Made by a program: the position numbers and the translations under genes
Source of the DNA: a virus
UHGV virus genome: UHGV-0348126
Strand: one strand, 5' to 3'
Length of the DNA: 35,770 nt
The notes under the pieces: model-generated
Seen by the model: only the letters and a program-made list of their open reading frames with translations
What the model was told of the DNA's origin: nothing
Databases searched by the model: none
Shown: positions 1,909-35,770 of the stretch, piece by piece
Numbering within the stretch: the stretch's first letter is position 1
Layout: each line of letters starts with the position of its first letter

Positions 1909-2453
1909 GCCTCCATCGCTTTATCAGGTTTGTCGGTGTTACTGCCCTGACCGTTCTCTCTGTGACGATGCCCGTTATAGGCAAGCCGCATCGCTGACAT
2001 GGTGGTGCCGCTGGAGTCGCACAGGTCTTTCACTTGTCCTGTCACTTCCAGGTCCATTTCAAAACGTGCTTTAGGTGAATTGCGAAACGTGATCGTTTTA
2101 CCTGCACCGTCCACCACGATCCCCTCCCGGGTCAGCGTCACGGACTGCCCCTGATCGTCATAGACAGCCACCTCACCCGTCTGCAGCCCTTTCAGGCGGT
2201 AACGCCGATCCGACACCGTAACAACCACCGCATGAGAACGGTCGCCATCCGGAAACAACACCACCGCTTCCGCACCGCTGTTTGCCCTTGCGGTAAAACC
2301 GTAAGGTTCAAGATGTTCAACCCCGGCTTTGGGTTCACCGGCAATCAGGGACACATCCACGGTCTGACATTTCGTTGCGGCACTGATGCTTTTCACCACG
2401 GCCCGCCCAATCAGCCCGAGGAGTTGTCGCTGTATGGTTTCAATCGCCCTCAT
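1905..2453 (-). CDS. baseplate assembly protein V / spike (Mu gp45-like)
   Basis: 182-aa ORF; position and recalled similarity to phage baseplate assembly protein V; 1-nt overlap with upstream gene. Confidence 0.7.
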   Translation of the reverse strand: MRAIETIQRQLLGLIGRAVVKSISAATKCQTVDVSLIAGEPKAGVEHLEPYGFTARANSGAEAVVLFPDGDRSHAVVVTVSDRRYRLKGLQTGEVAVYDDQGQSVTLTREGIVVDGAGKTITFRNSPKARFEMDLEVTGQVKDLCDSSGTTMSAMRLAYNGHRHRENGQGSNTDKPDKAMEA

Positions 2454-3532
2454 CAGAACGGGTCCTCCTGTACTCTGGCTTTTTTCTTTTTCCGCGCGCC
2501 GGGATCTTCGGGTTCAGGCAGATAAGCATCAGGCGGGCCGACACGGATTTCCGTCAGGGTGCCGTTCTGGTCCTGAGTAAACGTGACTTCCGAAACAAGC
2601 AGTTCGGTATTGTCGAAACCACAGACCGGATCAAAGACAATCACCCGCTGGTTGGGCTGCCACAGCGTACCGTTACCCTGTCGCCAGCCCTGCACCACAT
2701 AGGTGGTTTCATCCGTCCGCGCCGCCCGTTGTCGGGCTTCAAAGTCAGCACGCGCAATACAGCCTGCCCCCGTGGCCTGCCCTGTCTGCCTGATATACAT
2801 CGGACGGTAACGGGCAATAAATGCGTCCTCTGTGCGGGCCCGCAGCGCGGTGGTGGTGGCCTCACCGAAATCATCGTCGTTTCCGGCACGCTGCCCCGCC
2901 ACCTGGTAAACTGAAAACCGCTCCCGGATACTCTTCTCCGTATCACAGGAAAGGATGTTTTCCCCAAGTACCAGCGCGGTATGTGCCCGCGTTGAGCCAA
3001 TACCGCCAATCACCAGCCTGCCGTGCGGGTCGTCGTAAGCCAGTGCCTGCTGCTGACCGAGTATTTTGTTGATTACCTCAATCACCGTTTCACCGTGATC
3101 AGGCTGGACGTCAGGAATAACACCCGACGGCGCACCGTTGTTCACCACCTCAATGCCGAAGGGCGCAGCAAGCGCCTGCGCAATCTGTACCAGCGATCGT
3201 CCGTTAAACTGTGTCGGTTCGGCTGCACAGTCAATCAGATCAGCGGTTAGACTGCGTCCGGCAATACCGGTGCTGACCGAACGGGCATCGTAACGAACGG
3301 GCGTCGCCTCCACCCAGCCGGTGATCACCAGCTCATCACCAATCAGCACTTCCACTTTTGAACCGTTTTTAATGCGCGGCTGAAGCGTGGTGATACCCTC
3401 ATCTCCCGGCCACTGGCGGGTGATCTCCACACTGAAATCCCGCGCCAGTCGTTCAACACCGGCACCGATGCGCACCGATGTCCAGCCATTCCACTCCCGG
3501 CCATTTACCCGTAGCGTGACGTTATCGTTCAT
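2453..3532 (-). CDS. tail protein, Mu gp44 (P) / P2 gpD-like baseplate hub
   Basis: 359-aa ORF directly downstream of the DNA circulation protein gene as in Mu; 4-nt overlap with upstream gene. Confidence 0.7.
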   Translation of the reverse strand: MNDNVTLRVNGREWNGWTSVRIGAGVERLARDFSVEITRQWPGDEGITTLQPRIKNGSKVEVLIGDELVITGWVEATPVRYDARSVSTGIAGRSLTADLIDCAAEPTQFNGRSLVQIAQALAAPFGIEVVNNGAPSGVIPDVQPDHGETVIEVINKILGQQQALAYDDPHGRLVIGGIGSTRAHTALVLGENILSCDTEKSIRERFSVYQVAGQRAGNDDDFGEATTTALRARTEDAFIARYRPMYIRQTGQATGAGCIARADFEARQRAARTDETTYVVQGWRQGNGTLWQPNQRVIVFDPVCGFDNTELLVSEVTFTQDQNGTLTEIRVGPPDAYLPEPEDPGARKKKKARVQEDPF

Positions 3533-4857
3533 TGCACTGGCACCTTTAGAGGGATCACCGGCACAAAGCCGGGATGCGTAATGGCATTACGCCGGATAAT
3601 GTCCGCGTCACGCGCCGCGTTATCAAACCAGGTCGCCGCCAGCACCAGCGCGGGTAAAACCTCATCCGGCGTGCGCTGAATGATCCGTGCAGACTGTTCA
3701 AGGCGCGTGTTGATATCCGCATTCAGATCTGCTTTCACCCGGCGCAGCGCCAGAAACAGCGCATCACTGGTTGTACGGGACAACTCCTTATCAATTGCCG
3801 TATTCAGTGTGTCGCGAATGTCAGTCAGTTCTTCCCACGTCGGCAGGTCAACTGTGTTTTTCACCGCCGGTGCATTGTTCAGTGCCGGATGCGTGACGGA
3901 AGGCCAGCCAGTGCTCTGCGCAGGTGTTGTTGCCTGCCCCACTGCGGAATTCTGCATCACCGCGGAAGTTGTTGGCGCAGGCAATCGGGTGACGGCATAC
4001 GCCGCTTCGCTGATTGCGGTCGTACGAAGGGTGCTGGCAACCACGTTACGCTGCTGCGTCGCCGTGGCGGTGGTTTTACTGTCCGTTTTCCAGACGCCGC
4101 GCGGTTGCAGATCGCTGCCGAGGCTGACACCGGAAAGCGTTTTGATCATGGTGACCAGGTCGCTGGCGTTACCATAAAGGCGTTTCCCGGTACGCCACAT
4201 TTTCTGCACCTGCTCAACGAAATTTTTGCCTGACGATGGCGGCGGCAGAAGTACCGAGATATCCCCCTGCAACAGCCTGGCGGCATCCGATACGGCAGAA
4301 TCCACCACTTTCATCGCATCAGAAACATACCCCAGCATTATGCTGGCATTACCGATAACGTCGTTCTGCACGAAATCCGCCACACCATCGATACTGAAAC
4401 CGCTGAAGCTGTCACTGATGCAGTCATCCAGTGCAGAACAGGATGACATCAGCGTCTGCGCCGTCGCCGCACCTGATGTGGGGTAAGAGAGTTCTCCTGC
4501 TTCGACAAACTTCAGGTCAAAGCGGACAATACGCCCTTCACTTTTCGATGTGCTGACCCGAACTTCCCCGTCAACACAGACTTTCAGCTCACCATATGTC
4601 GGGTGGACAAGCGTGCCGGGACCGGGTTTATTCAGCGCTTCAATCAGGCGATCGCGCTGGTCAAAGCAGTCATCTCCCACCACATAAGCTGTGATGGACG
4701 GGCGGAAAGTGACTTTTCCCAGATCTTCGGTATAGGGCTTGTCGCGGTTCGGATATTCGTGTGTTTCCACACGGCGACCGGTTCCCGCACTTTCTTCTTC
4801 AACCTTAAACGGTACGCCGCGAAATGACGCATCCTGAAGCCTGTCTTTCCACGTCAT
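3529..4857 (-). CDS. DNA circulation protein (Mu N / gp43-like)
   Basis: 442-aa ORF; N-terminus MTWKDRLQDASFRGVPFKVEEESAGTGRRVETHEYPNRDKPYTEDLGK recalled as typical of the DNA circulation N-terminal domain. Confidence 0.8.
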   Translation of the reverse strand: MTWKDRLQDASFRGVPFKVEEESAGTGRRVETHEYPNRDKPYTEDLGKVTFRPSITAYVVGDDCFDQRDRLIEALNKPGPGTLVHPTYGELKVCVDGEVRVSTSKSEGRIVRFDLKFVEAGELSYPTSGAATAQTLMSSCSALDDCISDSFSGFSIDGVADFVQNDVIGNASIMLGYVSDAMKVVDSAVSDAARLLQGDISVLLPPPSSGKNFVEQVQKMWRTGKRLYGNASDLVTMIKTLSGVSLGSDLQPRGVWKTDSKTTATATQQRNVVASTLRTTAISEAAYAVTRLPAPTTSAVMQNSAVGQATTPAQSTGWPSVTHPALNNAPAVKNTVDLPTWEELTDIRDTLNTAIDKELSRTTSDALFLALRRVKADLNADINTRLEQSARIIQRTPDEVLPALVLAATWFDNAARDADIIRRNAITHPGFVPVIPLKVPVQ

Positions 4858-4870
4858 ATAAACTCCGGAT

Positions 4871-4928
4871 ACAAAAAACCCGCCAAATCTGCTTTGTCAG
4901 TTATTTACATCGCAGAAGATGTGGCGGG
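4871..4928 (-). terminator. putative intrinsic terminator downstream of the AT-rich cargo gene
   Basis: On the minus strand CCCGCCACATCT ... AGATTTGGCGGG forms a long imperfect stem (1 mismatch) followed by TTTTTTGT; lies between the cargo gene stop (4948) and the next tail gene start (4857). Confidence 0.45.
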
Positions 4929-4947
4929 AACCTAATATTTTTAATTA

Positions 4948-5460
4948 CTATCTGAGTTGAACATCAATGGAATAAATATCACCACTCTTTATAAATTTAG
5001 AATCTGTCCTTTCATCAAAAGATTCAAATGACTGTACCTTTAAAAACTTTTTCATTTTATTTTCAAAAATACTTTCATTAACACCAGTTAAATACTTGAA
5101 CGCTCTACCAGCAAGGACCTCATTACTTAAATCCATTGTGTTTTTATTGTCTTTGAAAAACCAAACAATAACCTTTTGTGGGCATGATGGATTATAAACA
5201 GATATATAAAACTGCGGCTCATATTTTTCATCAGCGTCATCACTAAGCATTTCTTCAGAAGATAATTCTCTTCTGAATTCATATTGCCGCTTAGTTATTC
5301 CTTCATCCTTTATTATCTCTTGCTTAACTGGCGCAATACCTATAGAAGAGATTAATTCTGACTCATTAAAGCTGAACTTACACTCTTCCGCAGCCAAGTT
5401 AAAAGATAAAAGTGCAGATATAAAAAAAACAAAGATACGCATAATCATCCCTTCAATCAT
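4948..5460 (-). CDS. hypothetical secreted protein (moron) with N-terminal signal peptide
   Basis: 170-aa ORF in a visibly AT-rich island. Three in-frame ATGs (5460, 5448, 5442); GAAGGG lies 6 nt before the ATG at 5442, giving MRIFVFFISALLSFNLAAEE..., a classic signal peptide with an LAA cleavage motif. No recognisable family. Confidence 0.6.
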   Translation of the reverse strand: MIEGMIMRIFVFFISALLSFNLAAEECKFSFNESELISSIGIAPVKQEIIKDEGITKRQYEFRRELSSEEMLSDDADEKYEPQFYISVYNPSCPQKVIVWFFKDNKNTMDLSNEVLAGRAFKYLTGVNESIFENKMKKFLKVQSFESFDERTDSKFIKSGDIYSIDVQLR

Positions 5461-5541
5461 TTGTAAGGAATGATTATATTAACTACTTAAAGCTGAAAAC
5501 CCAAATTATGCCAGACAAAAACACATTAATCATTTTGTACA
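5461..5541 (-). promoter_or_regulatory. putative autonomous promoter of the cargo gene
   Basis: Minus strand carries a perfect TATAAT (plus 5473..5478) about 13 nt upstream of the first ATG, in an AT-rich 81-bp spacer between the tape measure stop and the cargo gene; the -35 is weak. Confidence 0.35.
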
Positions 5542-7374
5542 CTACCTGAACCGCGTATAGCCAACATCATGGCTGACATCAAAACCGCTGGATCGCGTTT
5601 CCATAACCCGCATACCCGGAGGCGAATTCACAAAAGATACCTTGATCTCACCATCAACTTTTGGCACAGAAGCTTTGTTAATCATGAAGGGATTCGAGCC
5701 TGTGGCATCGGAGGCGTTGTTTGACTGAGCCGGATCCACCGCCGGATAAGGTGTGTATCCCCGCGCCGGTATTCCCGTCCCATAAGCATCATAAGCACCC
5801 GCGCCCCACTGCGCAGAGTTAATGGCATCGACCGTGTCACCGGAACTGTCGGTAAACCACTCAATAATTGGCTTCAGCTTGTCCCACATATCCTGAAACC
5901 ACTTAACAACCGGCCCCCAGTTATTGATCACCATCCCCAGCGGCGACCAGGCAAAAACTTTCTTAAGGAGTTCCCAGCCAGCCTCAAAATAAGGACCAAT
6001 GGTTTCCCAGAGTTTCTTAAAATAAGGTCCGACAACATCCCAGTTAGTGATAATTAATCCCGCAGCCAGGGCTATCGCCGTCGCAATCATGCCAATCGGC
6101 GTCATCGACATGATCCTGCTGACAATACTGATGGCACCGCCAACGCCCATCAATCCCAGTTTCAGAATCGCAAGACCAGCAGCAAGCCCGACGACGCCGC
6201 GAATAACCCGGGGATTTTCATCCGCAAACTTCGTGAATTTCTCCCCCAACTCCCCCAGCCATTGCGTGATATTTTTAGCGTCACCAGAAAATGCGCCGCC
6301 AATAGCCGCAAGGCCGTTAGTTGCGGTCCCTGTCATTGCCTCCCACAGGTTGGACAGCGTACCAAGCTGTGCCTGAACACGTTTATTCAGGCTGGCCTGT
6401 TTATTCATCTTCTGCTGGATCTGATCGTAGCCATCCTTTCCTTTATCGATTAGTGCATTGACCACCTGAAGGGTTTCGGCATCATCACCAAATATTGCCT
6501 TAAGTACACCAGTTCGTTTAACGTCGGTCAGTTTTCGCAGCTTTGCCAGTTGCCTGAACATGTTATCAAGACCGCCAAAACTCCCTTTGCCGTCAGTAAA
6601 ATCGAGCTGTACCCCGAGTTTCTGGCGGGCCATAACTTTATTAACATCCCTGATTTTCTTAACGCTTAATCCGGACTGGATAACTTTTCGCAGGGCATTA
6701 CCTGCCGACTCCCCGTTCATCCCCATCTGATCCATCATGACGCTGATGGGGGCAAGGCTATGTGCAGCCTGAAGACCGTCCTTGTTCACCATCTTCAGAA
6801 CAGAACTGGTTTTAGTGAAGAAGGACAACATGTTGGTATCGTCAACGCCCAGATAAAACGCCTTCTGGATAGTGTCGAACAGCCCCATCATGTCTTCTGA
6901 CGCCGTTCCGGTAGCATCCTGCATCTTTGCAGCAAACTCAGCAGCCGCTTCCGGTGTTTTTTTCAGTTGTACCGCAAGATAAGCTGTCGCTTTACCCACA
7001 CCGCCAAGAATGTTTTCTGCCGGGATCCCCTGACGCACCAGCATCTGCATCATGTTCTGGAAATCAGCCGTTGTACCGGGTAGCTGGTTACCCAGGCCAA
7101 TAGCCAGTTTATTGATGTCCTGAAAGCTCTTTCCAACCTCGCCGTTCGCATCCATCATGGCGACTTTCAGCCCGGTGGCGGCGTTTTCCTGATCGGCATA
7201 AGATTTCAGGGAAAGCGTCAGACCCGCTGCCAGTCCGCCACCAAGCGCCAGCCCACCCTGTGACGCTTCTTCCGCCTGGCGTTTAAATCCCCGGATTTTC
7301 TTTTGCATTTTCGACAGCGCGGGAGAAAGCCTGTCGACACCGGTGATCAACGCCTTAAGCTCAAATTCAGCCAT
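5542..7374 (-). CDS. tail tape measure protein
   Basis: 610-aa ORF following the tail chaperone; Ala/Gly-rich with hydrophobic segments (GVVGLAAGLAILKLGLMGVGGAISIV) and a Trp-rich repeat region (WDVVGPYFKKLWETIGPYFEAGWELLKKVF) typical of tape measure proteins. Confidence 0.85.
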   Translation of the reverse strand: MAEFELKALITGVDRLSPALSKMQKKIRGFKRQAEEASQGGLALGGGLAAGLTLSLKSYADQENAATGLKVAMMDANGEVGKSFQDINKLAIGLGNQLPGTTADFQNMMQMLVRQGIPAENILGGVGKATAYLAVQLKKTPEAAAEFAAKMQDATGTASEDMMGLFDTIQKAFYLGVDDTNMLSFFTKTSSVLKMVNKDGLQAAHSLAPISVMMDQMGMNGESAGNALRKVIQSGLSVKKIRDVNKVMARQKLGVQLDFTDGKGSFGGLDNMFRQLAKLRKLTDVKRTGVLKAIFGDDAETLQVVNALIDKGKDGYDQIQQKMNKQASLNKRVQAQLGTLSNLWEAMTGTATNGLAAIGGAFSGDAKNITQWLGELGEKFTKFADENPRVIRGVVGLAAGLAILKLGLMGVGGAISIVSRIMSMTPIGMIATAIALAAGLIITNWDVVGPYFKKLWETIGPYFEAGWELLKKVFAWSPLGMVINNWGPVVKWFQDMWDKLKPIIEWFTDSSGDTVDAINSAQWGAGAYDAYGTGIPARGYTPYPAVDPAQSNNASDATGSNPFMINKASVPKVDGEIKVSFVNSPPGMRVMETRSSGFDVSHDVGYTRFR

Positions 7375-17453: not shown

Positions 17454-17804
17454 TCACTTCAACCATTCACGGGCCGTCTTCGCCTTATGACACGGCCAGC
17501 ACAGACTCTGCAGATTACAGTCGGCATCAGTGCCGCCATGCGCTTTAGGGATGATGTGGTCAACAGTTTTCGCCTCACGCACCACACCAGCACGCAGACA
17601 TAGCTGACACAGGCCTTTGTCACGCTTCAGGACACGCACGCGGATAACATCCCACTTCGAACCATAACCGCGCTGATGACGAGATTGTCCTGGCTTGTAT
17701 TGCTTCCAGCCTTCGCTTTTGTGGCTTTCGCAATAGCCTGACGGGTCAGTCGTGGTATGGCGGCAGCCGCGAACGCGGCAGGCTTTTGGGGTTCGTGGAG
17801 GCAT
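17454..17804 (-). CDS. HNH endonuclease (terminase-associated)
   Basis: 116-aa ORF with Cys-rich HNH motif DHIIPKAHGGTDADCNLQSLCWPCHKAKT; immediately upstream of terminase genes. Confidence 0.85.
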   Translation of the reverse strand: MPPRTPKACRVRGCRHTTTDPSGYCESHKSEGWKQYKPGQSRHQRGYGSKWDVIRVRVLKRDKGLCQLCLRAGVVREAKTVDHIIPKAHGGTDADCNLQSLCWPCHKAKTAREWLK

Positions 17805-17931
17805 CTATTATCCCTGTAGTTTTCGTTAAATATCTAACCATAACTGCAATCAGAAACCGCTTTAACACGGTTTGTTAAATAGACTTTTCAATCCAATGAA
17901 TAAACGGCAAGTAAATACCAATCGTTCATTT

Positions 17932-18378
17932 TCATTTGAATACAAACTGTTCTGAAAGAATATTATGACAAATATATTTCGCCTGAATACTATTATCTCT
18001 CATTCTAATATATTCTTTGTGGGCAACAGATAAAGAACGACAACCGCTGTTTACACGTGGGTATTTTTCCAACATATGTTCGCATATCAAAAAAGCATTA
18101 TTAACAGCATTTAATTTATGATTTAACTCTCGTAGCTCGGCCCTTTTTTCAATACGAACATTACGACTAAGAGATAAAGGTAGTTGTGATAATGCATTTG
18201 AATAATCAGCCACTGCCATTTTCAGAGCCATTTTGGCCTTCAGAGCCTCCTGTCGCCGCCAAACATTCATTGCCCAAAAACCTAATGTAACAGTTACAAT
18301 TGAACCTAAAGCCGATACAGCTGACCACACAGTTCCCCAAGGCCAGTTAAGTAATGTATGCCACATAATAACCTCCAC
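17932..18378 (-). CDS. hypothetical membrane-anchored protein (AT-rich moron)
   Basis: 148-aa ORF in a visibly AT-rich island between the lysis cassette and HNH; N-terminal hydrophobic helix WPWGTVWSAVSALGSIVTVTLGFWAMNVW followed by a charged helical region; no family recognised. Confidence 0.55.
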   Translation of the reverse strand: MEVIMWHTLLNWPWGTVWSAVSALGSIVTVTLGFWAMNVWRRQEALKAKMALKMAVADYSNALSQLPLSLSRNVRIEKRAELRELNHKLNAVNNAFLICEHMLEKYPRVNSGCRSLSVAHKEYIRMRDNSIQAKYICHNILSEQFVFK

Positions 18379-18734
18379 TGAATGAAAAGGTTAGTTTATC
18401 GCAAGTGAACATCACTGGCACTATCTAAAGATTAGCTGCTCTACTAGTTGTACTCTCGATAATCTACACAAAATGATACGTAATAAACCTGTTCATGACT
18501 AGCTCTACTAGACACATGTTTAATCATCGACAAACGATTTGTATAAACTTCCACTTTCATATTGATCCAAAAGGTTGGCCTAATAGTTAATCACGATGCA
18601 TATTTTATGCAAGCTGCTACATTACGCTATAAAAACGCTAGCATCTGAACTTAAAGCCATAGATTTTATAAAATTACCATAATACACAACTTTATTATGA
18701 GCATTCGCAACGATAATGAAAAATATAACTCGAG

Positions 18735-19007
18735 CTATTTGTCTTTCGAATGCAAAATAGCGCGCCGTGATTCAATATTTCTGATTCCAGTTTTATCAAA
18801 ATTACATTGTCCCAAGGCTGACAATAGAGCAACATTCAACTCCAGACTGGTACCATACGTCAGCGGATTGGGTATAAACGGTACTGGAGTATCAGAAGTC
18901 AGGCTGGCTGGCAGCGGTGCCACCGGATCGCTCACGTAAACCGTCCGCGTACTTCCGCAACCGGTCAGCAGCGGCAGCAGGCACAGGACGTGAAGCACAA
19001 TCATCAT
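18735..19007 (-). CDS. Rz1-like outer-membrane spanin lipoprotein (overlaps Rz in another frame)
   Basis: ORF frame 18735..19073 contains MMIVLHVLCLLPLLTGCGS (lipobox LTGC) followed by a Pro-rich sequence; starts inside Rz and runs past its stop. Confidence 0.5.
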   Translation of the reverse strand: MMIVLHVLCLLPLLTGCGSTRTVYVSDPVAPLPASLTSDTPVPFIPNPLTYGTSLELNVALLSALGQCNFDKTGIRNIESRRAILHSKDK

Positions 19008-21036: not shown

Positions 21037-21789
21037 TTATCTCGTCACTTTTCTTAATTGCGCCTCAGCATATGCTTCTTCCTGCCAGCACTTTGTCACC
21101 AGTTTATCAATGACATCTGCATATCCTTTGTACCACTGATAATCCGTCAGGTCTGGTACCAGCTTCTGGACATGATGCCGCGCCAGTGTGGTTGGTAAAC
21201 GGCTAAACCGGTTTCCATTGCAACGCCCACAAATCTTATAAACAGGCGTGCCATGAAGCCGGGTCCTTTTTTCATCCAGGACAATACCTTTACCCTTACA
21301 CCCTCTGCACGCTGTGCTGGCTTCTCCCTTACCATGACAATGCTGACATAGTTCCTTCACCCACTCTTCCTTGATAACAGATTCCCCGCTTCTGGAGTGT
21401 TTCACCACTTCGCGCAATACATTATGAAATCCAGTACCAGCACAATGCTCACAGCGAGCCTTACTTGCCGCAGACCTGGAATAATCAGCAAAGGCAAAAT
21501 TCACAAGGTAAGGGATGATCTGTAACCGGGTTTCTTCACTCAATTTATTCAATGTCGGATTATCCAGTGCCATCGCGTAATTGAGCAGACCTTCAATCGC
21601 AAACTGAGGATCCTGAACACCAACTTTTGCCAGGAATAAGGCAAATCCAAGCGGTGCTTTCGACTGCACCATCCCCTGCGCAGCCATCACATCCGTAATC
21701 GTTAAACCACCCGAGCCTGTCGCCGGTGCGTCATCGCTCAGTTTTGGAGATTTTGGGGAGTAATATTTTGGTAAGGCTTCAAGGTTCAT
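21037..21789 (-). CDS. late-gene antiterminator Q
   Basis: 250-aa ORF with Cys-rich zinc-binding-like segment (CEHCAGTGF...CQHCHGKGE...CRGCKGKG...CGRCNG); located immediately upstream of the late promoter/terminator and lysis genes. Confidence 0.75.
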   Translation of the reverse strand: MNLEALPKYYSPKSPKLSDDAPATGSGGLTITDVMAAQGMVQSKAPLGFALFLAKVGVQDPQFAIEGLLNYAMALDNPTLNKLSEETRLQIIPYLVNFAFADYSRSAASKARCEHCAGTGFHNVLREVVKHSRSGESVIKEEWVKELCQHCHGKGEASTACRGCKGKGIVLDEKRTRLHGTPVYKICGRCNGNRFSRLPTTLARHHVQKLVPDLTDYQWYKGYADVIDKLVTKCWQEEAYAEAQLRKVTR

Positions 21790-28555: not shown

Positions 28556-29248
28556 ATGAACATAGGAAACCGAGTCAGACAACTTCGCCAGGCGAAGAAC
28601 ATGAAAATCGCCGATCTCGCTGAAGCAATAGGAGTGGATGCGGCGAATATCTCGCGCCTGGAAACAGGTAAGCAGAAACAATTCACTGAACAAGCCCTGA
28701 GTAATATTGCCAGGAGCTTAGGTGTTGATATTGCTGATCTCTTTACCTCAGACGTCAAAAGTAATACTGTATGTAAAAACAGTATTAGTGAGGATGTTGC
28801 GCAGGTGAAGGATGTATTCCGTATTGAAATGCTGGATGTCAGTGCCAGTGCGGGAAATGGCCTTATCCAGGGCGGTGATGTCATTGATGTGATTCATGCC
28901 ATTGAATACAGAACTGATAATGCTGTATCGATGTTTGGCGGACGACCAGCCAATCACATTAAAGTTATCAACGTTCGTGGGGACAGTATGTGTCCAACCA
29001 TTGAGCCAGGAGATCTCATCTTCGTTGATGTCAGTATCAATCAGTTTGATGGAGATGGTATCTATGTATTTGGTTTTGATGATAAAATTTATGTCAAACG
29101 ACTGCAAATGATACCTGACAAACTACTGGTGATTTCTGATAACCAGATTTACCGTGAATGGGGAATTACCAGCGAAAATGAACACCGGTTTATGGTCTTT
29201 GGAAAGGTCTTAATCAGCCAGTCACAAACCCTTAAACGACACAATTAA
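28556..29248 (+). CDS. CI-like repressor (HTH plus S24 LexA-like autopeptidase domain)
   Basis: 230-aa ORF; N-terminal HTH (RVRQLRQAKNMKIADLAEAIGVDAANISRLETGK); C-terminal S24 motifs GDSMCPTI (Ser) and VKRL (Lys). Confidence 0.9.
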   Translation: MNIGNRVRQLRQAKNMKIADLAEAIGVDAANISRLETGKQKQFTEQALSNIARSLGVDIADLFTSDVKSNTVCKNSISEDVAQVKDVFRIEMLDVSASAGNGLIQGGDVIDVIHAIEYRTDNAVSMFGGRPANHIKVINVRGDSMCPTIEPGDLIFVDVSINQFDGDGIYVFGFDDKIYVKRLQMIPDKLLVISDNQIYREWGITSENEHRFMVFGKVLISQSQTLKRHN

Positions 29249-33258: not shown

Positions 33259-33540
33259 AATGTATTAGCTTAGATGTGAGCTGACACATCTATGCTTAGA
33301 TGCCAAACCTAATCTGAGCGTCCACTCTTTACCAAGAGCGGACGTTACCAATGACCATATGACATGAATCGATAAGATCAAAACATTATCGCCAAGAAAT
33401 GTCATACCATTGATACAAATAAAATTGATTACCCCCTTACTCTTGTTGAAAAGTTAGTCGTAGAGTACCTATCGCAATGTAATCAGCTTTAATCATCTGA
33501 AAATTACTCCTTAAAAATTAGCTTTTATATACTGAACAAA

Positions 33541-34260
33541 TTAAATCTCTGTTTCTTTTCCTGCTCGGCTCAACCAATACTCCATTGTTTGAGTATGAAT
33601 CTTTTCAGCGTATATTTTATCAATTAATTTATCTTGTTTTTCTTTAATGACTTCACGCAGTGAATCATATAACATAAAAAAACGTTCATCATCTTCCTCA
33701 TTATTACCGTAATTTATTTGATTGAGTTCTGAAAAAATATGATAGTACCTTTTTTTCTTGGTCCCCGGCAATATTAAAACCAAGCCACATTGATCATATT
33801 CGAATTCACCTTTATGGGCAGCAAAGTTATGTCTAACATTCATAATAGAGTCATGTAAATCTCTGTATTTTTCTGGCACATGCTTTCTCTGCAATGTGAA
33901 TCGACGCCCTTTCGCCTCTGTAAAACACTTACCGTAAGTAACAACTTTTGATATAAACAAAGACTTTAATATTAGATTCTTTTCTAAATCCGGATAAATA
34001 AAGTGTTGTTCTTTATTAATGTTATTACAAATGTTTTTTATTATATTCTCCCAACCAATAACATTCCGAAGATCTTTATCAAGCAACTGTAAGGCCACAT
34101 ATTGTTCTACAAAACGGCCTTTTAAAGGTATTCGTGGTAATATTACACCTTTCTGCTTATAAATTCTTTCTATCGTATTATCTGGATATTGGATCTTCCT
34201 TATTTCTATTCCGTCTTCTTCTGATACCCTTACTAATGGTTCATTTTTTAACTTTGACAT
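33541..34260 (-). CDS. hypothetical cytoplasmic protein in AT-rich cargo island (candidate defence / abortive infection gene)
   Basis: 239-aa ORF, visibly AT-rich codon usage unlike flanking phage genes, flanked by AT-rich intergenic regions; no transmembrane segment; contains RHNFAAH (R-x5-H); no family recognised. Confidence 0.55.
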   Translation of the reverse strand: MSKLKNEPLVRVSEEDGIEIRKIQYPDNTIERIYKQKGVILPRIPLKGRFVEQYVALQLLDKDLRNVIGWENIIKNICNNINKEQHFIYPDLEKNLILKSLFISKVVTYGKCFTEAKGRRFTLQRKHVPEKYRDLHDSIMNVRHNFAAHKGEFEYDQCGLVLILPGTKKKRYYHIFSELNQINYGNNEEDDERFFMLYDSLREVIKEKQDKLIDKIYAEKIHTQTMEYWLSRAGKETEI

Positions 34261-34546
34261 GTTAACCCTCTTAAATAAAAAACTAACTTTATCCAGATAG
34301 TGTCCGTTAAGAAGTTTTCGTTACAACTAAGTTTCTAGGTAAATCATGAATCGACCTATAGTATCAAAAACATTTGGTGGTAAACATCTGCATTTATCAA
34401 ATGGCAGGAGCGATTTAGGGGCATAGGGATAGTGATGATATCGATACCCGCCCCCCTCTTATGTCAACACAATGGCGTAAACTTAACGCTCACATCTCGC
34501 TCAAAGTGTGCTAGGAGATTTGGTTATGTTCAGGTGATACAAACCG

Positions 34547-35770
34547 TCAGTTTGAATCAGATATAGTACAATTAACAATCGATTCAACCCTCTTCCACCA
34601 TGCCAGGTAAGCTTTACGCTGTTCTTCTAGATAATCGCTCTTATCATAAACTTGCCATACCCCTGGCAGCTTATGACCAAGCATAATTTCTGCGATATGA
34701 GGCGCAGTAAGATCAGAAAAATTTGTTCGAGCTGTACGTCTCAAGTCATGAAGAGACCAATGAGGGAATTGATATCCTAAACGCCGCCATGCGTACTGCA
34801 TTAAATTGTAAGGCAGCGACTGCAATGATGTCCGACCAACGGGTTCCCTGCTTCCTTCCTTAGTAAAAAGCATATCTGAACCATTGTTCATAGAGATAGC
34901 GTACTTTATAAGCTCTTCAACCGGTTCAATAATCGGCCGCTTTAGCGGTTCGCCTGTTATCTCCCCAGTCTTATGTCGTTCTGGTGGTACAGTCCATACT
35001 TTATTAATGAAATCAAAATCGTCCACCCGGGCGGTAATAAGCTCTGAACTACGGCAACCAAAATGCAGCAATAGTTTAATGAAGGCCCGGTATTTAGGAA
35101 CCATTCGAGAACCATCGATCGCAGCATAAAGGATTTTAATTTCATCATGTGTCAGAAACCGTTTCTTCTGACCTTTACGGATATCCATATCTTTACCCGT
35201 GATATCCGACAGCGGGCGAGTTTCAATGAGCTTTCTCTTATACGCCCAGACATGGGCCTGCTTTGCGTTAATTAGCAATCGGTCTGCTATTGCTGGAGTC
35301 TTAGTGCTAAGAGGCTCCAGGACTTCTAACCAATCATGCAATGTAGCTGCATCGTGAGGGATATTCCCGATTTTAGAGAACAGGTGCAGCTCAAACGAGC
35401 GGAGTATCTGTTCAGAACCTTTTTTATTTTTTACACAATATGCTTCATACCAAGCACGGATCACAGACTCTACCGTCATGGCTTCAGTAGCTTTTCGTTT
35501 TTCAGCCTGCTTGACCAATCGTGGATTACGGTTTGACTCGAGTTCACCACGAAGACGGATAACTTCTTCTCTGGCCTCTTTTAATCCAGTTGCCGGGTAA
35601 GTTCCGATATCAAGACGCTCACCTTTCCCTGCCCATTGATAACGATATTGGAACACTACGCGACCTTTCGGTGATACTCTGACAGACAGACCATCACGAT
35701 CGGATTTAACCAAAACCTTATCACGTTCCTTTCCAACGACTGAACGCAACCACGCATCAGACAGCGCCAT
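34547..35770 (-). CDS. tyrosine integrase, P4-type (N-terminal DUF4102-like arm-binding domain)
   Basis: 407-aa ORF; N-terminus MALSDAWLRSVVGKERDKVLVKSDRDGLSVRVSPKGRVVFQYRYQWAGKGERLDIGTYPATGLKEAREE; catalytic region HDLRRTARTN...LGHKLPGVWQVYDKSDY; start codon is the last 3 nt of the window. Confidence 0.9.
   Translation of the reverse strand: MALSDAWLRSVVGKERDKVLVKSDRDGLSVRVSPKGRVVFQYRYQWAGKGERLDIGTYPATGLKEAREEVIRLRGELESNRNPRLVKQAEKRKATEAMTVESVIRAWYEAYCVKNKKGSEQILRSFELHLFSKIGNIPHDAATLHDWLEVLEPLSTKTPAIADRLLINAKQAHVWAYKRKLIETRPLSDITGKDMDIRKGQKKRFLTHDEIKILYAAIDGSRMVPKYRAFIKLLLHFGCRSSELITARVDDFDFINKVWTVPPERHKTGEITGEPLKRPIIEPVEELIKYAISMNNGSDMLFTKEGSREPVGRTSLQSLPYNLMQYAWRRLGYQFPHWSLHDLRRTARTNFSDLTAPHIAEIMLGHKLPGVWQVYDKSDYLEEQRKAYLAWWKRVESIVNCTISDSN

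Follow-up and report, generated by a model that had tools for sequence, protein, structure and literature searches.

Morons, as defined by Hendrix and Juhala, are stretches of extra DNA with deviant GC content that bring their own promoter and terminator and are expressed from the repressed prophage (PMC3594210). Roles of such genes in host fitness and virulence are documented, and there is precedent for morons within tail operons that encode exclusion proteins (PMC3594210). HK97 gp15, a relative of YebO, is a short protein of the inner membrane for which expression from the prophage and an exclusion phenotype have both been demonstrated (Juhala et al. 2000; Cumby et al. 2012, as summarized in PMC3594210). 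Cor of phages phi80, N15, and HK022 and Llp of T5 are exported proteins of enterobacterial phages that are encoded beside tail genes; both are FhuA-inactivating lipoproteins that act at the envelope against superinfection. The T4 Sp protein is another small envelope protein encoded beside tail genes. Temperate phages also have hotspots of variable cargo and defense genes, with those of P2 and P4 and the phage "moron loci" as described examples (as cited in PMC11364771).

The window analyzed here, a stretch of 35,770 nucleotides, is an almost complete genome of an SfV-like temperate phage of the E. coli prophage type with its late genes on the minus strand. Over its first 17.8 kb it matches, at 98.8% identity, a prophage located at dusA of E. 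coli strain 1428. SfV-like prophages are often carried in E. coli and Shigella genomes. The original prediction, made from the DNA alone, was that a self-contained moron encoding a secreted protein had been inserted between the tape-measure and DNA-circulation genes of this phage. The coordinates of the locus and of the genes that help define its setting are given in Table 1.

Table 1. Features of the cargo segment, the surrounding tail operon, and selected prophage genes (positions in the window)
Feature	Position	Strand	Details
Baseplate hub protein	2453-3532		Pfam
DNA-circulation gene, Mu N/gp43 type, 442 aa	3529..4857	minus	Pfam DNA_circ_N, E 4e-34; right border of the slot
Intrinsic terminator	4873..4928	minus	stem CCCGCCA/TGGCGGG, 35-nt expanded loop, then TTTTTT
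Cargo gene, protein X, 164 aa	4948..5442, stop codon included	minus	PHROG 8976, WP_001219112.1; GC 0.315
Predicted signal peptide, residues 1-18	5389..5442	minus	MR, 12-16-residue uncharged core, small-x-A site
AT-rich leader, 99 nt	5443..5541	minus	follows the tape-measure stop codon (5544-5542)
Candidate promoter	-35 TTTTCA 5499-5494; 15-nt spacer; -10 TATAAT 5478-5473	minus	sequence
Tail tape-measure gene, 610 aa	5542..7374	minus	Pfam PhageMin_Tail, E 3e-26; left border of the slot
Tail assembly chaperone, tube, and sheath genes	further inward, past the tape-measure gene		Pfam
Q-type antiterminator	21037..21789	minus	Pfam Antiterm PF03589, E 1e-53
CI-like repressor	28556-29248
Integrase	34547-35770

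The anatomy of the locus is as it had been described: a 684-bp AT-rich segment (4858-5541) lies between the tape-measure and DNA-circulation genes and carries a single 164-aa ORF on the minus strand, the product of which is here called protein X. It is the largest gap in a tail operon whose neighboring genes abut or overlap, in line with the tight coupling that had been noted. The segment has a GC content of 0.317, compared with 0.54-0.60 for the tail genes on either side and 0.51 for the window as a whole, a deviation of the kind that belongs to the definition of a moron. Counted from its first ATG, the ORF extends over 5460-4948. That ATG lacks an SD. Translation probably begins at the ATG at 5442: the SD GAAGGGA (5454-5448) lies 5 nt ahead of this codon, and PGAP chose the same start for the 164-aa form, WP_001219112.1. 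From this start, the N terminus of X reads MRIFVFFISALLSFNLAAEEC. On the other side of the terminator, the DNA-circulation gene follows directly with its own SD (GGAG, 4866-4863) and its ATG at 4857. Rfam searches with the leader and with the expanded loop of the terminator returned matches at chance level only.

The locus shares several attributes with the described systems. Like HK97 gp15, X is encoded by a small accessory gene of deviant GC content that sits in a tail operon beside the tape-measure gene, is absent from close relatives, is followed by a terminator, and specifies an envelope-targeted product. Unlike HK97 gp15, X is a protein of 164 aa that is predicted to be soluble and periplasmic, shows no sequence relation to gp15, has no convincing promoter, and is encoded on the other side of the tape-measure gene in the tail module of a myovirus (Mu-type). 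Export, a gene position beside tail genes, and an origin in enterobacterial phages are also common to X, Cor, and Llp. However, X has no homology to these lipoproteins and no lipobox, and its cysteine falls at position +3 of the predicted mature protein, behind a cleavage site of the A-x-A type.

That the segment is extra DNA was borne out by comparison with phages lacking X. SfV, SfII, SfI, and vB_EcoM-689R6 do not have the segment between flanks that are 95.6-97.4% identical, and SfIV has merely 24 bp between the tape-measure and DNA-circulation genes. Homology to SfV and SfII ends at 5552, three codons ahead of the tape-measure stop codon, and resumes at the T-run of the terminator. In place of the segment these two phages have approximately 45 nt with a short hairpin, TCCCACTCCGGTGGGA, and a T-run; this hairpin is labeled a rho-independent terminator in the SfII record. 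When phage genomes were searched by megablast, only E. coli phage SKA5 matched the whole 1.6-kb query (98.6%). The segment is therefore extra DNA that close relatives lack at the same position, as the moron definition has it. Among isolated phages, X is found in SKA5 and Pantoea phage AH07 and is missing from SfV, SfI, SfII, and SfIV, and the existence of viable close relatives without X makes it a dispensable accessory gene. Within 5426 complete E. coli genomes the segment was present in 85, in the chromosome every time, and the carriers include avian pathogenic and clinical strains.

The original prediction spoke of an insert; a one-off insertion is not what the comparisons show. A census of near-identical phages was made from 80 IMG/VR loci with a DNA-circulation gene of 99-100% identity, with the 73 that retained both anchors being counted. 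X occupies the site in 21 of these, one of them frameshifted. In 25 others the site encodes an unrelated protein of 176 aa that has a hydrophobic segment at its N terminus, a 148-aa tRNA_anti-like protein with an N-terminal transmembrane (TM) segment is encoded on the opposite strand in six, and one has a bPH_1 protein. The remaining 20 are empty, with just a 72-nt spacer of the SfV type that includes the terminator. All of these cassettes have a GC content of 0.32-0.37.

The same variability was found at larger distances. A scan of species-representative genomes gave 50 usable prophage loci, nearly all from Enterobacterales, with Shigella, Kosakonia, Kluyvera, Buttiauxella, Edwardsiella, Citrobacter, Pantoea, Erwinia, Mangrovibacter, Symbiopectobacterium, Serratia, Lonsdalea, Yersinia, Mixta, and Arsenophonus represented along with one Paraburkholderia locus. 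The gap between the two anchor genes ranges from 2 to 2877 nt; it is at most 85 nt in 19 loci and filled in 31, mostly with DNA of 0.33-0.44 GC. X itself is present in three of the 50. About half of the filled slots (~16 of 31) encode a protein with a signal peptide, a lipobox, or a TM segment. The cargo includes a 150-aa secreted family (four loci), a two-TM protein on the opposite strand (two loci), two lipoproteins with canonical lipoboxes, the E. coli types called B, C, and D, a ClpP-like protein, small cytoplasmic pairs, and multigene inserts. The idea that the cargo represents a single diversifying superfamily was rejected: hhalign probabilities among X, the 150-aa family, and the B family were 1-17%, and only the signal peptides aligned.

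SfV-like temperate phages have a hypervariable cargo slot in their Mu-type tail module, and the segment is one of the alleles found there. The slot has a fixed order, with the tape-measure stop codon followed by the cargo, a conserved intrinsic terminator, an SD, and the DNA-circulation gene. Its cargo is AT-rich, dispensable for phage production, and swapped among phages via recombination in the conserved flanks. X is a moron in the broad sense of an accessory, exchangeable gene of deviant composition. As in the P2 and P4 hotspots, unrelated small AT-rich units interchange among near-identical phages at a fixed site between conserved genes; in contrast to those hotspots, small proteins that are exported or membrane-bound prevail in the slot over cytoplasmic enzymes. 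None of the slot cargo matched the PADLOC defense models. In the searchable literature we found no description of a slot between the tape-measure and DNA-circulation genes of SfV-like phages, nor any work on the accession of X or on phage SKA5.

No family had been recognized for the protein, and this stands as far as Pfam, NCBIfam, and PADLOC (at E<=0.1) are concerned, where X has no match; it is nevertheless a member of PHROG 8976, with a full-length match of residues 1-164 to profile positions 1-164 (phrog_8976, E 2.8e-107). Because this PHROG has no functional annotation, membership gives X a name and explains nothing. The family is very small: at 90% identity, it makes up 16 clusters in a set of 5.8 billion proteins. 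When 1.8 billion representative proteins were searched exhaustively by HMM, 12 clusters (50% identity) came up, all of the same orphan family, and repeating the profile search with the distant members added brought nothing new and no informative names. A sequence-profile search of the PDB gave only noise.

Nearly every member of the X family that could be placed sits in the same slot. Orthologues with 57-62% identity are found there in Kosakonia pseudosacchari, several metagenomic contigs, and Atlantibacter, and the slots of Kluyvera and Pantoea alvi also hold X. More distant are gene 16 of Pantoea phage AH07 (42.5% identity), a Yersinia ruckeri prophage (33%), and two metagenomic loci (36% and 27%), again all in the slot. 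In the same comparisons, X has 27-66% identity and the flanking tail proteins 43-92%, so that X diverges roughly in step with its neighbors, about twice as fast. The orthologous genes remain AT-rich, with a GC content of 0.33-0.40 versus 0.47-0.57 for their surroundings. Between orthologues, pN is 0.21-0.27 and pS 0.65-0.91 (saturated), and the length is fixed at 160-166 aa, which together indicate that X is under purifying selection. A recent foreign insertion is unsupported, given that X was kept in the same slot while the flanking tape-measure proteins fell to 58-60% identity. One homologue (P0023) is an exception to the association with the slot. It is also AT-rich but has neither the signal peptide nor the first cysteine, and its gene follows that of an autotransporter in a nonphage context. 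This homologue counts against the explanation preferred below.

The signal peptide that had been called in X was confirmed as a Sec-type pattern kept across the family, in 14 of 15 homologues, even though the sequence itself varies freely. The shared N terminus consists of M-R/K/H, 12-17 uncharged residues, (A/S/V/L)-x-A, and E/Q/G-x-C (14 of 15 members). Cleavage is predicted after A18, two residues ahead of the near-invariant Cys21. Cys21 is present in 14 of 15 members and Cys87 in all of them; the mature protein has no other cysteines, and the pair is compatible with a disulfide in the periplasm. A lipoprotein was considered and rejected, as the sequence ...NLAAEEC does not have the lipobox [LVI][ASTVI][GAS]C and the residues between the small-x-A site and the cysteine are always E-E, E-Q, or G-E. 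This pattern argues strongly that X is exported by Sec and cleaved after Ala18. The mature form (~146 aa, ~17 kDa, pI ~4.95) would then very probably be a soluble, acidic periplasmic protein with one disulfide, Cys21-Cys87, and no membrane anchor.

An AlphaFold2 model based on a 13-sequence alignment reached a pLDDT of 88 and a pTM of 0.80. It predicts a seven-stranded antiparallel sheet with helices packed on it, and only the signal peptide is disordered. Foldseek with this model found nothing in the PDB at E<=0.001. In BFVD a single phage protein matched, A0A8S5RVB8 (180 aa, TM 0.63, E 7e-6); its metagenome-derived name, "ABC transporter periplasmic binding protein," was judged unreliable. 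The fold is predicted with confidence, yet the model offers no functional lead.

The terminator downstream of X folds stably. Its hairpin has an energy of -22.3 kcal/mol (z = -3.55), which was matched by none of 200 shuffled sequences. The GC stem and T-run of the original prediction are therefore present, and with the hairpin at 4928-4873 the segment has the terminator that a moron should have. The type of terminator is slot-wide, however, empty slots included, and it is no hallmark of X. Most loci of the clade have ACCCGCTTCGGCGGG and a T-run followed by CCCGGAG, within 65 nt upstream of the start codon of the DNA-circulation gene. Across genera the slot hairpin takes the form CCCGC-TTCGG-GCGGG plus a T-run and is kept in most loci, whether filled or empty; where the stem varies, for example to CCCAC/GTGGG, pairing is maintained. 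Exceptions are chiefly slots with cargo on the opposite strand, along with a few directly coupled genes. Beside the SD of the DNA-circulation gene, every same-strand E. coli cassette closes with a hairpin and T-run variant of its own. The terminator of X is the cassette's version of a slot-conserved terminator, and the cargo is placed between the tape-measure stop codon and a terminator that was already there. Because the terminator is present even in empty slots, it gives no evidence that X is a self-contained unit.

A perfect TATAAT was the other mark of autonomy that had been pointed out. It exists, and with its -35 element it makes up a candidate promoter that ends 30 nt ahead of the ATG at 5442. 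Its occurrence is at chance level: among shuffled 99-nt leaders, TATAAT turns up in 16%, and 20% attain an equal score for -35 and -10 together. A standard promoter scan did not call the TTTTCA/TATAAT site. The regions upstream of X at ten loci were examined by this hexamer rule, allowing spacers of 15-19 nt. Only the E. coli clade showed a candidate suitably spaced from the ATG, and a comparably placed candidate was absent from eight of nine orthologous loci. At the metagenomic loci L096 and L100 and in Pantoea phage AH07, the X ORF starts 15-17 nt past the tape-measure stop codon with only an SD between them, and in Yersinia ruckeri the called X ORF overlaps the end of the tape-measure gene; these distant orthologues have no space for an intergenic promoter. 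Other E. coli cassettes do show promoter candidates, 36-37 nt ahead of their ATG, in B (TTGTAA, 16 nt, TG-n-TAGAAT) and D (TTGGCA, 15 nt, TATAAT). Cassette C, which runs on the opposite strand, is beyond the reach of the late promoter and must have a promoter of its own.

X and the tape-measure gene are read in the same direction, and between the tape-measure stop codon and the X ORF no terminator-like site was found, which points to late co-transcription with the tail operon. Late co-transcription would be the general state for X, and the leader promoter may possibly be active in the E. coli clade. By analogy with the biology of lambda Q, the Q antiterminator is likely the reason late transcription passes the slot terminator; on the same analogy, Q-independent transcripts that enter from the slot would stop there. 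As for the original prediction of a self-contained unit, the deviant composition and accessory nature hold up. The promoter is at chance level and unconserved, the terminator belongs to the slot, and the picture of an autonomous promoter, gene, and terminator is not established for X.

The explanation that we prefer, at a probability of roughly 0.45 for the whole, is that X is an exported cargo allele of the slot that is transcribed late, with superinfection exclusion as its proposed function. X would be transcribed together with the Q-antiterminated late tail operon, and in the E. coli clade some further expression may come from the repressed prophage through a weak leader promoter. The terminator would then keep these prophage-state transcripts out of the baseplate genes. 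The periplasmic protein would hinder an incoming phage at tail penetration or DNA injection. Exclusion of incoming phages at the envelope is speculative as the function of X, and we favor it tentatively, by analogy, because the slot is rich in small envelope proteins, lies beside the tape-measure gene, and has counterparts in morons such as HK97 gp15 and Cor that act in this manner. Searches of PADLOC, Pfam, NCBIfam, and PDB profiles matched X to no known defense or superinfection-exclusion family. Exclusion of the classical type needs expression in the prophage state, which for X, with its chance-level, unconserved candidate promoter, is no more than a possibility. Two further points count against exclusion. 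Enterobacteria typically silence such AT-rich DNA through H-NS, and the exclusion proteins of Gram-negative phages known to us are lipoproteins or membrane proteins, never soluble periplasmic ones.

A bolder version of the proposal, which we regard as rather doubtful, would have X found a new class of soluble periplasmic exclusion factors with a fold that has no solved relative. Such a factor would intercept the tape-measure or tail-tip complex of incoming contractile-tailed phages during passage through the periplasm. The slot and its conserved terminator would then constitute a dedicated, undescribed hotspot of Enterobacterales prophages for swapping unrelated small envelope proteins that act at the injection step.

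Late transcription would also fit a helper of the lytic phase. In this role X would be exported during lytic growth. It could then keep progeny from being lost by abortive adsorption to, or injection into, debris and cells that are lysing, or it could modulate periplasmic steps of lysis. The orientation with the tail operon, the uninterrupted path from the tape-measure gene, the operon-like coupling of the distant orthologues, at 15-17 nt behind or overlapping the tape-measure stop codon, and the Q antiterminator in the same prophage are all consistent with this. What makes a lytic helper improbable is that X is dispensable and freely replaced by unrelated genes, some of them on the opposite strand, where they cannot be genes of the late operon. 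In addition, the receptor-masking proteins T5 Llp and Cor are lipoproteins, which X is not.

A contribution to the lysogenic host has to be weighed as well. Lambda Bor and Lom are examples of lysogenic-conversion factors, and X made by the prophage could likewise alter envelope physiology, resistance to stress or serum, or the interaction with an animal host. Such a role would suit a gene that is accessory and AT-rich, has an exported product, and, in the E. coli clade, is preceded by a candidate promoter, and avian pathogenic and clinical E. coli are among the carriers. However, the X family tracks the tail module over plant-associated Pantoea, fish-pathogenic Yersinia ruckeri, and Kosakonia, and persistence in such different hosts argues against a role specific to one host niche. 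Within E. coli only 85 of the 5426 complete genomes carry the segment, with no visible host restriction, and Pfam and NCBIfam searches found no known virulence factor that resembles X. A host fitness or conversion factor is accordingly considered unlikely.

The view of X as a conserved tail component or tail-assembly factor is largely refuted and highly improbable: its position between the tape-measure and DNA-circulation genes is fixed in every phage that has it, distant ones included, but SfV, SfI, SfII, and SfIV are viable without it, 47 of the 50 species-level loci lack it, isolated phages exist both with and without it, its rate of evolution is about double that of the flanking tail proteins, and tails are built in the cytoplasm, whereas X has a conserved, predicted cleavable signal peptide.

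On its own, X is one more uncharacterized prophage accessory gene, and the slot, its terminator, and the catalog of exported cargo are of more use. In a tail module that is widespread among prophages, one slot that is easy to find is home to no fewer than ten unrelated families of small cargo, the majority exported or membrane proteins and none of them listed in present defense catalogs. If, as the preferred explanation of superinfection exclusion would have it, the cargo acts on incoming phages, the slot would offer a ready list of candidates for exclusion at the injection stage. To our knowledge, few mechanisms of this type are understood in Gram-negative bacteria, and exclusion at this stage matters for phage therapy of E. 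coli and Shigella. A conserved intrinsic terminator in the midst of a tail operon is a separate small puzzle that concerns the regulation of tail gene dosage.

The slot between the tape-measure and DNA-circulation genes accommodates a variety of cargo other than the 164-aa protein family (PHROG 8976) found in the window. Among the compared loci, it was found with a 176-aa protein with a hydrophobic segment at its N terminus, a bPH_1 protein, a secreted 150-aa family with conserved cysteines, and two lipoproteins with the lipoboxes LFSC and LSAC. Other slots encode their cargo on the opposite strand, as is the case with a tRNA_anti-like transmembrane (TM) protein and a 145-aa protein with two TM segments. 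None of these alternative cargo proteins had a match in PADLOC, and most had no Pfam family.

An intrinsic terminator sits within the tail operon, directly 5' of the DNA-circulation gene. Comparison of the 65 nt 5' of each DNA-circulation start (loci L103-L153 and L005-L100) gave the consensus ACCCGCTTCGGCGGG plus a T-run, followed by the SD sequence CCCGGAG. This terminator is present in many genera of the Enterobacterales, in empty and filled slots alike, and stem variants (CCCAC/GTGGG) keep the pairing. The terminator might set the dosage of tube and sheath versus baseplate; alternatively, it might insulate the baseplate genes against cargo promoters. In the E. coli cassette with the PHROG 8976 gene, the terminator hairpin (window 4879-4928, minus strand) has a loop expanded by ~35 nt, and the extra sequence forms a small hairpin of its own (CUGC...GCAG). 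The other cassettes examined that carry this gene and have a readable downstream hairpin show the usual 4-nt loop.

Features of the slot, the additional AT-rich islands, and the nonphage homologue
Feature	Location	Strand	Details
Slots with other cargo	L012 3309-4000; L054 3403-4000; L066 3496-4000; L107, L124, L138, L145; L109, L113; L143/L144; L147		
Intrinsic terminator	window 4873-4928	minus	
Second AT-rich island	window 17700-18900		GC 0.37-0.39; flanked by terminase/HNH region and lysis genes
ORF of second island	window 17932-18378	minus	148 aa
Third AT-rich island	window 33300-34500		GC 0.31-0.34; adjoins integrase gene (34547-35770)
ORF of third island	window 33541-34260	minus	239 aa
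P0023	L157 3001-3471		156 aa; AT-rich (0.37)

Frameshifted or truncated copies occur among the PHROG 8976 genes, and the gene is therefore decaying in part of the population. One of the 21 IMG/VR loci that carry it has a 1-bp deletion (L038 3309-4000), and several protein clusters (P0007, P0015, P0016, and P0018) are fragments of 89-109 aa. Within the fragment clusters, 66 sequences are labelled Salmonella Derby. The homologue P0023 is the only family member found in a nonphage setting, where its gene adjoins an MFS transporter gene and closely follows a pertactin-type autotransporter gene with its terminator. P0023 has neither a signal peptide nor the first of the conserved cysteines; it may represent a copy that was stranded or repurposed.

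The window has additional AT-rich islands. In Shigella phages of this kind, the position next to the integrase, where the third island lies, is the usual site of genes for serotype conversion or other lysogenic conversion. Neither the 239-aa ORF of this island nor the 148-aa ORF of the second island had a Pfam family. The second island is a candidate for a further cargo locus; here the window differs from the prophage of E. coli strain 1428, which is otherwise nearly identical.
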